Assembly (NCBI GenBank): GCA_016706545.1
Contig: JADJJK010000031.1
Coordinates: 21,650 to 85,649, forward strand
Source of the DNA: Myxococcales bacterium
GTDB taxonomy: Bacteria > Myxococcota_A > Polyangia > Haliangiales > Haliangiaceae
Direction: 5' to 3'
Length of the DNA: 64,000 nt
In this document: piece after piece, positions 33,397 through 41,257 of the stretch
How the letters are laid out: each line of letters begins with the position of its first letter
Numbering within the stretch: position 1 is the stretch's first letter
Position numbers and translations under genes: made by a program
Notes under the pieces: generated by a model
What the model was told of the DNA's origin: nothing
Database searches by the model: none
What the model saw: only the letters and a program-made list of their open reading frames with translations

Positions 33397-34650
33397 TCAC
33401 CGCCCGGGAAGTCGCGCGGTGCCGGAGCTAACCGGGACACGGACGAGCGACTCGGGCAACCCACGCTCGCGCGCGTCATCGAGCGGCAGGCGATGCAGCT
33501 CGAGGGACCAGTCGACCGCGGTGGGTTGGGGAGCGGCTCCGGCCGGGGCGGCGAAGACCACGCGCCGACGCCATGGCCGAGCGGCCCGCGCCGGCACCCG
33601 GGTGTCCTCAACCTCGCCGAGCAGGTGGCCGCGCGCGTCGTCGGTGATGGTGAGGGCGAAGTCGCGGCGCAGCAGCTCGGTGTGCTGCTGGTCGCCGAGC
33701 CGGATGGTGAGCACCGCCTCGCGAAACATGTCGCCGGTCGGGAAGGCGTGCCCGATGGCGCCCGGCGTCACCGTCACCGTCACCTCGACCTTGTCGCCGC
33801 GCCGCCGAGCGCTCGCCTTCACGATCACCGCGCTCGCCATGAACGCTCGATCCTCGAAGGTCCGAAATGCGTGGTCGCGGTGCGCGCGCGGACGATCTGC
33901 CGAGCTGCGCTCGCCTGCGATCTGCGGCATGTGGCAGGCCTGGCAGGGCTTGCCGGAGTGGCGGCTCTGCTCCCACTCACGCAGCGTGTTCTGCAGCGGT
34001 CGCCCCGGGTGATACCGCGGTCGGCGGCCGGGCTCCGGGGCCGGAAAATTGAACTGGTGGCAGGATCCGCAGAACGCGCTGGTGGCGAGCCGAGCATCGC
34101 TCGCGGCGGCGTGGTCGGAGTCGCCGCGGCCACGCACGCCGAGCACCCGGCCGCCTCGCACGTGGCATACCGCGCAGTCGATGCCGCGCCCGGCGAGGGT
34201 GGCTGCGAGCACACGGCTGGCGGAGTCTTCGCCCGCAGGCTCCTGCACCAGCGGCGCATGGCAGCGACGGCAGAACGGCTCCGGCGTGAGCTTGTACTCA
34301 GCCTGGAAGATGACGTCGGTCCACGAGCGAGCGTGGGCTGAGCTTGCCCACTCGGCGGCGATCTCGGCGTGACATGGCGCGCAGTCCTCGACGCCCACGC
34401 CGCTGAGCCCGCGGGGCGCGGGGCCGTGCGAGACCGGCCCACCGGCGCTGGGGAACAGGTCGAGGAGGCGCAGGCGCGCATCCGAAGCTGCCGCCATGCC
34501 AGGTGCCGGAGGGCTCGCCGCAGGGGGGCCTGCCGGGGCTGGCTGACCCGCTGGCCTCGCCTGCACCAGGCCCCAGCGCAGCACGGCGAACGCGATCATG
34601 CCGAGGCCAAGGCCCGCCCAGCGTGAGGGCGCTCGGGACCTGCTCATCAC
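33397..34650 (-). CDS. secreted multiheme cytochrome c (5 CxxCH motifs)
   Basis: CAPCH, CRRCH, CAVCH, CGSCH, CQACH; N-terminal signal peptide; 4 nt downstream of the preceding lipoprotein gene. Confidence 0.75.
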   Translation of the reverse strand: MMSRSRAPSRWAGLGLGMIAFAVLRWGLVQARPAGQPAPAGPPAASPPAPGMAAASDARLRLLDLFPSAGGPVSHGPAPRGLSGVGVEDCAPCHAEIAAEWASSAHARSWTDVIFQAEYKLTPEPFCRRCHAPLVQEPAGEDSASRVLAATLAGRGIDCAVCHVRGGRVLGVRGRGDSDHAAASDARLATSAFCGSCHQFNFPAPEPGRRPRYHPGRPLQNTLREWEQSRHSGKPCQACHMPQIAGERSSADRPRAHRDHAFRTFEDRAFMASAVIVKASARRRGDKVEVTVTVTPGAIGHAFPTGDMFREAVLTIRLGDQQHTELLRRDFALTITDDARGHLLGEVEDTRVPARAARPWRRRVVFAAPAGAAPQPTAVDWSLELHRLPLDDARERGLPESLVRVPVSSGTARLPGR

Positions 34651-34654
34651 GTCC

Positions 34655-35815
34655 TCATGGCCTTGTGGCGCTGCCCTCGCCCCACGGCTTCACTTCGCGC
34701 TGCCGCAGGTCAGGATCGCAGGCCTCGTCGGACCACGGATCGAGGCACGGCAGGAGCTGGATGAAGTCGAGCGCGCGAACGCCCGCCGGCCTGGCCAGAT
34801 CCCTGAACAGCACGATCGACTCGCGCACCGGCGGCTCACGCTCGCGCCATCGCTCCACGGACCAGGTCGCGAGGTCGAGGAAGAACGAGGGCTCGACGTC
34901 GACGTTGGCGTCATCGTCGCCGTCGTCGTCGCCGTCGCCGTCGTCGGGGGACCCGCCGCTCCACAGGTACAGGAGCTGGCGGTGCTCGGTGGTGACCTGG
35001 GGGCGCTTGGGCCCGGGCTTCTTGCTCGCCACCCGCGAGGACACCACCTCCAGATACGCATCGAGCTGGTCATCGACGTCGAGCTTCGCCACGAACCAGT
35101 GGCGGAGCCGCAGGTCGCATCCGGCCTCAGCCAGCGGCATCAGCTGGACGCTGGGCCCTTGGCCGCCAGGCTGCGCGGCGCCTGGGAAGCGCGCGTGGAC
35201 AATGCCATGGGCGCGGCACGCGGGGTTGAGCGCCACCTCCTCCGGCGTCGGGCAGCTCGCCGGGGGCGCCGCGCCGGTGCAGCCTTCGTACAGCGGGGAC
35301 TCGTACAGCGCGTAGACCTCCTGCTGCCCCGCCTGGTCCGGGGTGGCGAGGATGTGCCGCAAGGTCACCGGCGCGTCGCGCCTGCGACGGACCTCGTTCA
35401 CCAGGGCGAGCTTCCGCTCCTCCGACAGCGGCTCGCGCTGCGTGAGCGCCTCGATCCGGTCCGGAAACATCTGCTCGATGTCTCGACCGGTCCCTGCGCC
35501 TCCGTAGAAGGGGACCTTGGGACTCGCCGGTGAGCCCGGAGGGGCGGACGGCGATGCGGACGGCGATGCATTCGCGGCTCCGGGGGCGCGGGCCGCGCCG
35601 GCCGGACTCTCCGCTGCGCCGGCCCCGGGAGCCGCGGCTACGCTGGAACCCGCGGCTGGCGGCGCCAGCGCGACGCCCGCCGCAGGCGACGCGCTTTTCG
35701 GCGAAGCCGGCGCCGTCTTCGGCACGTCCGCGACCTTCGGCGGCGCCGCCGCCTGCTTCCCTGCGTCGCAAGCCCAGGTGACCGTGAGCGCCGCGAGCAT
35801 CGCAGCGCGCCTCAT
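34655..35815 (-). CDS. lipoprotein, paralog family member A (Ala/Pro-rich linker + conserved C-domain with acidic DGDGDDDGDDD cluster)
   Basis: MRRAAMLAALTVTWAC lipobox; ATG overlaps upstream paralog stop (ATGA); shares IRYQLRD/VYAxYE..YE.C and C-terminal motifs with 35812..37080 and 40067..41257. Confidence 0.55.
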   Translation of the reverse strand: MRRAAMLAALTVTWACDAGKQAAAPPKVADVPKTAPASPKSASPAAGVALAPPAAGSSVAAAPGAGAAESPAGAARAPGAANASPSASPSAPPGSPASPKVPFYGGAGTGRDIEQMFPDRIEALTQREPLSEERKLALVNEVRRRRDAPVTLRHILATPDQAGQQEVYALYESPLYEGCTGAAPPASCPTPEEVALNPACRAHGIVHARFPGAAQPGGQGPSVQLMPLAEAGCDLRLRHWFVAKLDVDDQLDAYLEVVSSRVASKKPGPKRPQVTTEHRQLLYLWSGGSPDDGDGDDDGDDDANVDVEPSFFLDLATWSVERWREREPPVRESIVLFRDLARPAGVRALDFIQLLPCLDPWSDEACDPDLRQREVKPWGEGSATRP

Positions 35816-39834: not shown

Positions 39835-39914
39835 TCGCGGAGACCTCCGCGGAAACGTTGGCGTGATCCAAGTCGCAGCGCGTCTCCGCGGAAGCTCCGG
39901 TGCTGTGGACGGTG
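39835..39914. repeat. ~80-bp hairpin-forming repeat element copy B
   Basis: direct repeat of 39393..39472, 442 bp away. Confidence 0.6.
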
Positions 39915-40066
39915 GCGCGGGACGGGACTAAGACGGACCAAGACGGATTAAGACACGCGAAGCGGAGAAACGCTGGAGGCCCTGATTTCTCCGCGGCGCC
40001 GAGGCGACCTGGTACGCTACGCGCGGGATGGAGGCTGCGGCTCCGGGCCGCAGCCAAAGGAGGAAC

Positions 40067-41257
40067 ATGACCGCTCGGCACCTGTGGTTCACCATCATGC
40101 TCATGGCCTGCAGCTCGGAGGCGCCGGCACCTCGGGCGACCGCGGTTGGCCCGTCTCCACGAACGGCTGCGCCAGCGCGCACGGACGAAGCCGTCCGCGC
40201 GACGAAGGAAGCCGTCGCGGTCGCGGCGCCCGCGGCCAAACCAGCCGCCGCCGCCGCTGCCGCCGCTGCCGCCGAGGCCGCCGCTGCCGCCGGCGTCGCT
40301 GCCTTCGCCGCCGAGGCGAAGGAGCGAGCAGCGCGTGAGGAGAGGGATCGAGGAGAGGTGGACGAGGAGGCCCACCTCGCCGCGATCCGCGCCGCGCTGG
40401 CGCAGGCGGATGCGCCGATCCCGGTGGCGACGCCTCAGCTCCAGACAGAGGCGCTCCCGGACAAGATGAACCGGCGGATTCGCTTCCGGCTGCGCGCGCT
40501 CTCGAAGGCCCCCATCGCCCTGCGGTCCATCCAGTATCTGCCGCAGGAGGACGGCAGCGCGGAGGTGATCGCGATGTACGAGACCAGCTTGTACGAAGAG
40601 TGCGTCCGTGAGTTCGCGAGCAGGATCGAAGGCCGCAAGTCCTGCCTCTCTCGGGACAGGGTTCGCGGCTGCGTGCGCAGCGGCGTGGTGTGGGCGCACT
40701 TCGCCGCGCCGGGCCCAGCGACGCCGGTCGAACAAGGCGGCTCGCTGACCCTGCAGACCAGCCCGCTGGAGCGCGAGCTCTGCACCATCAAATCGGAGAC
40801 CCTCCAGGTCGCGGACCTCGATGGCGATGGCAAGCTCGAGCTCGAGCTGAACGTGGTCAGCGCCAACGAGCCTCCCTCTGACAGTCGCGGCATGTACAGC
40901 CACGACTACGCATGGTCATACTACCTGTTTCCTTCCGACCTCTCACCCGAACAGAGCTTGTCCATCGAGGTCGAGAGCTGGGAAGTGATGAACGGCGTGG
41001 ACGGCTTCGCGTTCGAGCCGCTCCTCGAGCTGCGCGACGTGGACCACGATGGCCGACGTGACCTGGTGCAGTACACGCCACGAGATCTGAGAGAATGCAA
41101 GGACGACAACACGCCCGAGAGCCCGGAGGAAGGGGCGCCAAATCCGTGCGCGCTCGTCAACCGAGCGGTCGAGATCTACCTCTACGACGTGAGCGCTGAT
41201 CGATGGATCGCAGCGACCCAAGCGCAGCTCGAGTCGCTCGTGAGCCACGCGCGGTAG
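40067..41257 (+). CDS. lipoprotein, paralog family member C
   Basis: perfect SD AAAGGAGGAAC then ATG 40067; MTARHLWFTIMLMACSS lipobox; RRIRFRLRALSKAPIALRS / VIAMYETSLYEECV / DLDGDG motifs shared with paralogs A and B. Confidence 0.6.
   Translation: MTARHLWFTIMLMACSSEAPAPRATAVGPSPRTAAPARTDEAVRATKEAVAVAAPAAKPAAAAAAAAAAEAAAAAGVAAFAAEAKERAAREERDRGEVDEEAHLAAIRAALAQADAPIPVATPQLQTEALPDKMNRRIRFRLRALSKAPIALRSIQYLPQEDGSAEVIAMYETSLYEECVREFASRIEGRKSCLSRDRVRGCVRSGVVWAHFAAPGPATPVEQGGSLTLQTSPLERELCTIKSETLQVADLDGDGKLELELNVVSANEPPSDSRGMYSHDYAWSYYLFPSDLSPEQSLSIEVESWEVMNGVDGFAFEPLLELRDVDHDGRRDLVQYTPRDLRECKDDNTPESPEEGAPNPCALVNRAVEIYLYDVSADRWIAATQAQLESLVSHAR

Follow-up and report, generated by a model that had tools for sequence, protein, structure and literature searches.

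Periplasmic multiheme cytochromes encoded together with an accessory lipoprotein are an already known kind of system in metal and sulfur reducers. In the ext clusters of Geobacter, the periplasmic pentaheme protein ExtKL is kept and its lipoprotein partner, the rhodanese ExtH, is frequently replaced (PMC6148476). MccSep, which is the ExtKL of Geobacter sulfurreducens, was reported in late 2025 as a tetrameric pentaheme polysulfide reductase (PDB 9wt8); its Cys239 ligates heme 2 and its Sec325 lies on a D-G-U-P loop of an Ig-like domain, and according to its authors the components that deliver its substrate remain unidentified (bioRxiv 10.1101/2025.11.18.688581). Another low-potential pentaheme protein, cytochrome c552 of Thermochromatium tepidum (PDB 5ze8), is described as having no assigned function in the passage of PMC11976967 that cites Chen et al. 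2019. Here we analyse a stretch of 64,000 nucleotides (the window; ~71% G+C) from a Myxococcales bacterium (GenBank assembly GCA_016706545.1, contig JADJJK010000031.1, positions 21,650 to 85,649 of the forward strand), which encodes three paralogous predicted lipoproteins, A, B and C, two of them in one operon with a pentaheme c-type cytochrome. Members of this lipoprotein family turn out to be repeatedly encoded beside one clade of such cytochromes.

The cytochrome (417 amino acids (aa), 33397-34650), paralog A (386 aa, 34655-35815) and paralog B (422 aa, 35812-37080; E=7e-98 with the hidden Markov model (HMM) of the family) are encoded on the minus strand in the order B-A-cytochrome. Paralog C (396 aa, 40067-41257, plus strand; family HMM E=2e-90; ortholog P0015), a B-type protein, is encoded by itself on the other strand, 3 kb away from B. 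An earlier note, made by a model from the letters of the sequence and a list of its open reading frames (ORFs), had placed these four genes at coordinates that match the ORF list exactly, and had read the first three as a coupled minus-strand operon. Both junctions are as it described: the stop codon of B and the start codon of A share an ATGA, and the A stop codon, which a GAGGA run overlaps, is followed after 4 nt by the GTG-ATG of the cytochrome. A Shine-Dalgarno-like GGAGGG run lies 5 nt upstream of the B ATG. Scans of the whole window with the family HMM and for multiheme proteins found neither a fourth paralog nor a further multiheme ORF; a promoter/terminator scan of 33200-41400 returned 0 promoters and 1 terminator-like site, under the shuffle expectation.

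The resemblance of this locus to the ExtH-ExtI-ExtJ-ExtKL arrangement is evident on two levels. In both systems the cytochrome has five CxxCH motifs and carries a C-terminal Ig-like domain, from which a GHxxPxG loop would point toward heme 2. In both, too, its gene adjoins that of a lipoprotein, which differs from lineage to lineage although the cytochrome is retained. However, the lipoproteins of the window are unrelated to the rhodanese ExtH, neither the porin ExtI nor ExtJ is present, and the hosts appear to be Haliangiales-/Kofleriaceae-like Myxococcota, not sulfur or metal reducers.

To follow the linkage beyond the window, we fetched contigs from the lipoprotein homologs, most of them short and metagenomic, and obtained 15 informative loci (L003/L004 and L096, too short to score, lie outside this number). 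A cytochrome homolog, 35-65% identical to that of the window, was directly adjacent to the lipoprotein in 11 of them (the window, L005, L007, L010, L011, L012, L013, L014, L095, L097 and L098). The adjacency extends to a lipoprotein only 24% identical to B (L014), and the lipoprotein-cytochrome junctions include 4-nt overlaps (L010, L012, L097) as well as short gaps. In L007 the gene order is B'-A'-B''-A''-cytochrome.

The same question was approached from the cytochrome side, by scanning metagenomes with the cytochrome alignment. At least 481 relatives were found and 80 loci were kept; the two patterns used were H[AR][FV]PTGDM, which biases any census of the Asp loop described below, and [FM]C[GA][SG]CHQF, which is independent of that loop. 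HMM searches of the flanks detected a lipoprotein of the family adjoining the cytochrome in L016 (where there are three paralogs), L017, L018, L020, L021, L023/L031, L024, L033 and L086, and a weakly detected one beside the cytochrome of L025. Beside most cytochromes of under 40% identity, the HMM scans of these 80 loci found no such lipoprotein.

In a neighbour-joining tree of 65 full-length cytochromes, all those clearly linked to a lipoprotein fall in one clade, and its sole members with no lipoprotein detected, L015 and L019, have no upstream flank. Within the clade the lipoprotein gene can lie upstream, downstream (L018, L020, L095) or in divergent orientation (L023/L031), indicating that the linkage has survived rearrangement. 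All-against-all clustering of the neighbours in 85 cytochrome loci (the 80 from the scan plus five found through the lipoprotein) revealed no third gene conserved around the pair, and several apparent neighbour clusters were reverse-frame artefacts of high-GC DNA. Other clades of the cytochrome have a different secreted upstream neighbour, namely a NADase_transloc/F5-8-type-C protein (9 loci) or a DUF2330 protein (6 loci); DUF2330 also occurs upstream of the lipoprotein-cytochrome cluster in L007. Examples of these alternative neighbours are found at ~314-2206 in L080, 1116-2936 in L047 and 165-1700 in L007. Such swapping of secreted neighbours among cytochrome clades parallels the Geobacter ext pattern of a kept cytochrome and a replaced lipoprotein (PMC6148476). 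We consider the gene linkage solid, and what the earlier note had offered as a possible redox association gains substance from the 11 adjacent cytochromes and from the single clade that the clearly linked ones form; the mechanism behind it can be outlined only conditionally, as we do below.

The cytochrome itself consists of an N-terminal hydrophobic signal or anchor, a Pro/Ala linker, a five-heme domain and a beta domain of ~170 residues. Exactly five CxxCH motifs are present (minus strand, 34383-34369, 34272-34258, 34176-34162, 34071-34057 and 33945-33931), and there is no cysteine elsewhere in the protein; the C-terminal beta domain contains an invariant GHAFPTGD loop (33753-33730, minus strand). 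Pfam and NCBIfam models gave weak multiheme matches, including 28.6 bits against a cut-off of 250 with the ExtKL model NF040886. A profile search of the PDB was more informative, retrieving T. tepidum c552 (5ze8) at E=4.9e-15, in two stretches that cover both the heme and the beta domains, and MccSep (9wt8) at E=5.5e-7, aligned through the GHxxPxG loop. On the strength of these profile matches, we assign the cytochrome to the fold family of c552 and MccSep ('PHC family' in PMC11976967), with c552 as its best solved relative.

The c552 protein shares the H-A-x-P-T-G loop, but it has Ala where the family of the window cytochrome has an invariant Asp. In the HMMER alignment with MccSep, this residue (Asp307 of GHAFPTG-D) takes the position of Sec325. 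Among ORF motif matches in the 85 cytochrome loci, the position is occupied by Asp in 71 of 81 cases and by His in 8, and never by Cys. An equivalent of the heme-ligating Cys239 is likewise absent, since the cytochrome has no spare cysteine. Assignment to the MccSep/ExtKL enzyme family was therefore rejected: the Sec or Cys and the heme-ligating Cys are absent. Nonetheless, the cytochrome may be catalytic, because the Asp is strictly conserved on a loop that in MccSep reaches the heme-2 pocket.

As for the lipoproteins, the earlier note had proposed that A, B and C are paralogs, and this was verified by pairwise BLASTP: B and C are 33% identical over 303 aa (E=2e-31), A and B 27% over 168 aa (E=6e-13), and A and C 32% over 169 aa (E=6e-15). 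All three alignments are confined to the C-terminal domains, outside the low-complexity linkers, and the sequence blocks that had been singled out as shared (RRIRYQLR...APIALR, YEYSVYEDC and DLDRDGHADLV) correspond to conserved columns of the family alignment. The relationship of A to the others needed refinement. By BLAST, A matches B only in its N-half; between profiles, however, the match of the A-type (seven proteins) to the B-type extends across the entire domain (hhalign probability 99.9%, E=4.8e-34). A thus represents a divergent subfamily, which keeps all six domain cysteines, has lost the second acidic, calcium-type loop and has a C-terminal signature of its own, LLPCLDPWSDEAC.

Every A-type gene that we found lies directly downstream of a B-type gene with a 4-nt ATGA overlap. 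This holds for 6 of 6 pairs (the window, L005, two in L007, L001/L002 and L008), across ~35% identity, and the constancy of the overlap suggests equimolar synthesis of B and A and, probably, a B-A heterodimer. One of these pairs has a particular setting: in L001 (2321-7017), and also in L002, a distant B'-A' pair is part of a tight operon with the order OmpR-type response regulator-B'-A'-HAMP histidine kinase. Other loci have a paralog downstream of the cytochrome, but paralog C shows no clean orthology with it, and the duplications of the family look lineage-specific.

All three proteins have the same architecture, with a lipobox, a disordered linker of ~100 residues rich in Ala, Pro, Gly, Thr and Ser, and a domain of ~300 residues. 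In B (minus strand) the signal peptide and lipobox (AVLVPA-C21-KGK, i.e., LVPA-C21 with Lys at +2) span 37080-37018, the Ala/Thr/Gly/Pro linker 37017-36733 and the conserved domain 36732-35815. In A (minus strand) the lipobox TWA-C16 (LTVTWA-C16-DAG, Asp at +2) is followed by a linker and by a domain at ~35500-34658; in C (plus strand) the lipobox LMA-C15 (IMLMA-C15-SSE, Ser at +2) precedes a poly-Ala linker and a domain at ~40442-41254. By N-terminal charge, hydrophobic stretch and lipobox, A, B and C are predicted signal peptidase II lipoproteins, in keeping with what the earlier note had called them. A lipobox-like motif was matched in 43 of the 44 family members with an intact N-terminus, the +2 residue being variable. 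The orthologs of B, 58-97% identical to it, have the lipobox wherever the N-terminus is intact, with Lys at +2, a residue that acts as an inner-membrane retention signal in M. xanthus (PMC3222651).

The linkers differ among the three paralogs, and Tandem Repeats Finder confirmed that they contain coding simple sequence repeats. In B, a repeat with a 12/24-nt unit (36782-36863, minus strand; score 106) encodes the GATAGATAGATA... GATA peptide repeat of the linker; in C, (GCC)23 (40244-40313, plus strand) encodes the poly-Ala linker. A has a repeat with 3/12/18-nt units (34893-34946, minus strand), encoding an DDGDGDDDGDDD insert that is missing from A-type orthologs, and a further one at 35544-35569 (minus strand). 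The cytochrome of L007, from a Haliangiales metagenome-assembled genome (MAG), also has a long N-terminal linker of the type (SASV/SASA)n (7900-8250), derived from a hexanucleotide-type repeat, so that repeat-encoded tethers are common to lipoprotein and cytochrome.

An alignment of 48 sequences showed that C70 and C84 are invariant and four other cysteines nearly so; the basic helix RRIRYQLR and two acidic loops are also conserved. In B, the first loop is DDVDGDREQE (residues 284-293; 36202-36231, minus strand), in which D169, D171 and D173 of the alignment are nearly invariant and E177 is invariant, and the second is DLDRDGHADLV (residues 352-362; 35995-36027, minus strand), with D236, D240 and D244 nearly invariant. 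The second loop fits the DxDxDGxxD consensus of FG-GAP repeats; the corresponding loops of C read DLDGDGKLELE and DVDHDGRRDLV. FG-GAP repeat proteins are also matched by the family profile, over positions ~150-250, i.e., the same region, and what had been proposed as calcium-binding-type motifs can thus be described as FG-GAP-type loops for which calcium binding is predicted. The six conserved cysteines would form disulfides, and the membrane localisation of the proteins is a prediction of the same kind. The 48 sequences contain no conserved His, Met or free Cys that could serve as a cofactor ligand, making it unlikely that the domain holds a redox cofactor.

The AlphaFold model of B (predicted local distance difference test score, pLDDT, 87.2) has a cystatin-like N-terminal half, followed by a few long hairpins or propeller-blade-like sheets. 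No solved structure matches it over its full length: in a Foldseek search of the PDB the best hit had E=0.011 and a TM score of 0.25, and nothing was significant. The likeness to the cystatin-like fold (the N2 domain of histidine-rich glycoprotein, 4ccv; cystatins; latexin) is one of fold only, at 2-12% identity, and the lipoproteins have no QxVxG protease-binding loop and no sequence-level match to cystatins; membership in that family was rejected and the fold resemblance retained. With FG-GAP and FG-GAP_3 proteins (PF01839, PF13517; VCBS-like, integrin-alpha-type propellers) the family shares the DxDxDGxxD loop on a beta-hairpin. However, each lipoprotein has two such loops, A-type proteins lacking the second, whereas typically seven repeats close a propeller, and nothing in FG-GAP proteins corresponds to the N-terminal 130 residues (RRIRYQLR helix, APIALR, YEYSxYEDC).

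Neither A nor B has a Pfam or NCBIfam match, and C gives sub-threshold hits to FG-GAP_3 (PF13517, 19.1 bits against a cut-off of 26.9) and EF-hand_5, on DLDGDGKLE. Weak FG-GAP_3 matches occur in 27 of the 48 members (best E=1.1e-5), none of them over the gathering threshold, and we accordingly rejected membership in FG-GAP/FG-GAP_3 and kept the resemblance of the motif. The description as a family of unknown function therefore stands. A word-indexed search of 5.8 billion proteins yielded 7 relatives; when 1.84 billion representatives were searched exhaustively with a profile, ~70-100 full-length members were matched in a single stretch (300-570 aa), together with many giant multi-repeat proteins that match only positions ~150-250 and that Pfam identifies as FG-GAP repeat proteins. 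Where named, the members are called 'hypothetical protein', apart from one fused to a TPR domain and called 'tetratricopeptide repeat protein'. Taxonomic names are attached to just two of the genomes with the lipoprotein, both of them MAGs, one from the Haliangiales and one from the Kofleriaceae. The scan of genome collections used narrow patterns and returned three loci, so taxonomic breadth is under-sampled. Some members (P0020, P0023, P0024, P0025) are fusions, in which the N- or C-terminus of the lipoprotein domain is joined to a TPR-like domain (signature DPSWxWPFYNLAC), and in L097 (4494-5357) the same domain forms a separate lipoprotein adjoining the lipoprotein-cytochrome pair.

How are lipoproteins and cytochrome related functionally? 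The explanation that we favour, and to which we would give an even chance, is that A, B, C and their relatives are membrane-tethered, non-redox partner subunits of the linked pentaheme cytochrome. This role is suggested by the coupled adjacency of the genes, the monophyly of the linked cytochromes, the fact that both proteins are envelope-targeted with tethers, and the lack of cofactor ligands in the lipoprotein domain. Each lipoprotein would be anchored by a lipid and would have, beyond a long disordered linker, a domain of ~300 aa stabilised by disulfides and made up of a cystatin-like alpha+beta half and two or three FG-GAP-type beta-propeller blades, with two calcium-binding loops in B and C. 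The family has been inherited together with one clade of cytochromes of the c552/MccSep (ExtKL) fold. Translational coupling would ensure equal amounts of B and A, which probably form a heterodimer and would bind the cytochrome at the periplasmic face of a membrane (a single B-type protein would do so in simpler loci), and the cytochrome itself would be tethered by its N-terminal hydrophobic segment and linker. The B-A pair could serve to dock and organise the cytochrome, or else offer it a substrate or an electron partner; paralog C would be a stand-alone extra copy. The physical complex and the partner role are both deduced from the arrangement and make-up of the genes.

Some observations weigh against this explanation. 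Co-occurrence of the lipoproteins with a multiheme cytochrome, although found in most of the informative loci, is not universal, as no cytochrome lies near C in the window or in L006, L008 and L001/L002 (4 of 15). Moreover, the B'-A' pair of L001 sits within a two-component operon with no cytochrome nearby, and the histidine kinase encoded there has no heme motif.

This last arrangement is at the basis of the main rival explanation, which in our judgement is unlikely, namely that the lipoproteins act in the periplasm as adaptors for sensing or regulation (ligand-dependent, perhaps calcium-dependent, or inhibitor-like in the manner of cystatins or PliI) that modulate whichever partner is encoded with them. 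Depending on the genome, the partner would be either a histidine kinase or the cytochrome, and the lipoproteins would control the activity of the cytochrome without belonging to its working core. The inhibitor-like N-terminal fold and the fusion or adjacency to a TPR-like domain would fit such a role, as does the operon of L001. However, that operon is a single two-component context set against eleven cytochrome contexts; the inhibitory QxVxG motif of cystatins is absent and the similarity of fold is generic, and the PliI signal came from 1 of 48 members.

Alternatively, the lipoproteins could be functionally independent of the cytochrome, for instance calcium-dependent surface adhesins or matrix-binding proteins, and their adjacency a synteny inherited in one lineage. 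We regard this as less likely than an adaptor function, and on the whole improbable. The FG-GAP-type loops and the solitary position of paralog C and of the L006 gene are consistent with it, and the monophyly of the linked cytochromes would fit a single historical juxtaposition. Nevertheless, the adjacency is kept where lipoproteins are down to 24-27% and cytochromes to 31-40% identity, and through changes of order and strand, with junctions that are often overlapping frames; neutral synteny seldom outlasts such divergence. Two FG-GAP-like loops, furthermore, do not make up a full propeller. Least likely, and in our view quite remote, is a thiol-disulfide substrate or relay function in which six redox-active cysteines, conserved in sequential pairs, would operate with a low-potential pentaheme cytochrome whose characterised relative MccSep does S-S bond chemistry (bioRxiv 10.1101/2025.11.18.688581), since the lipoproteins have no CxxC motif, their cysteines, 9-37 residues apart, appear in the model to flank secondary-structure elements as structural disulfides do, and the cytochrome is without the Cys and Sec that MccSep uses.

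A more far-reaching possibility, which we put forward tentatively and consider unlikely as a whole, is that the lipoproteins and the Asp-type cytochrome together make up a heme enzyme system of the periplasm, so far unrecognised, in Haliangiales-like Myxococcota. The cytochrome would be catalytic, with an open or unusually ligated heme 2 and with the invariant Asp replacing the selenocysteine of MccSep; the lipoproteins would form a calcium-dependent platform, for example as B-A heterodimers in which two-blade FG-GAP units close a pseudo-propeller; and this platform would deliver a substrate or an electron partner to the cytochrome.

Turning to the surroundings of the module, a DUF222/HNH endonuclease gene (37210-39339, minus strand; Pfam DUF222 1.3e-11, HNH 1.9e-5) lies between B and C in the same direction as B; it is outside the module and splits the paralogs. 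The orthologous locus L005 has no counterpart (no Pfam match upstream of the B ortholog, and no tblastn match with the HNH protein), suggesting that this gene may have been inserted. Within it are 21-nt internal repeats (38501-38555), and the palindrome TTCCGCGGAA is found there in several copies (38397-38544). The same palindrome occurs again in the intergenic region upstream of C (39394-39917), at 39394-39460 and 39835-39900, together with a 60-nt direct repeat (39416-39475 and 39858-39917, 88% identical) and an 18-nt tandem repeat of 4.6 copies (39732-39814).

Just downstream of C, on the opposite strand, is a pair of FAD-linked oxidase genes with a 4-nt overlap (41364-44512, minus strand; FAD_binding_4 + FAD-oxidase_C, GlcD/GlcE-like). 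Convergent with the cytochrome gene is one for a 902-aa protein (30572-33280, plus strand) with Pfam matches to MVP_shoulder (1.6e-21) and Vault_3 (5e-9), a bacterial homolog of the eukaryotic major vault protein. Finally, the FG-GAP-like part of the family profile weakly and repeatedly matches an ORF of ~1137 aa at 5464-8871 (minus strand; E=0.0017), which probably encodes an ordinary FG-GAP repeat protein.

A literature search for a myxobacterial pentaheme-lipoprotein module found none. Multiheme cytochromes with accessory lipoproteins are not new as such, as noted at the outset; what is new here is a lipoprotein family with no threshold match in Pfam or NCBIfam, no full-length solved relative and no informative database name, for which a seed alignment is now available to build a family model. 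Should the linkage prove to be only structural, the result would still be a useful annotation, if an unsurprising one. The Myxococcota have a reputation chiefly as aerobic predators of the soil, and neither extracellular nor sulfur respiration is what they are known for. The cytochrome partner belongs to an uncharacterised, Asp-type clade, and it was not until late 2025 that an enzyme was first described in the family that includes this clade. The retention of this lipoprotein family as a neighbour by one entire clade of Asp-type pentaheme cytochromes provides a two- or three-protein module with which the role of such cytochromes may be probed outside the classical anaerobes.

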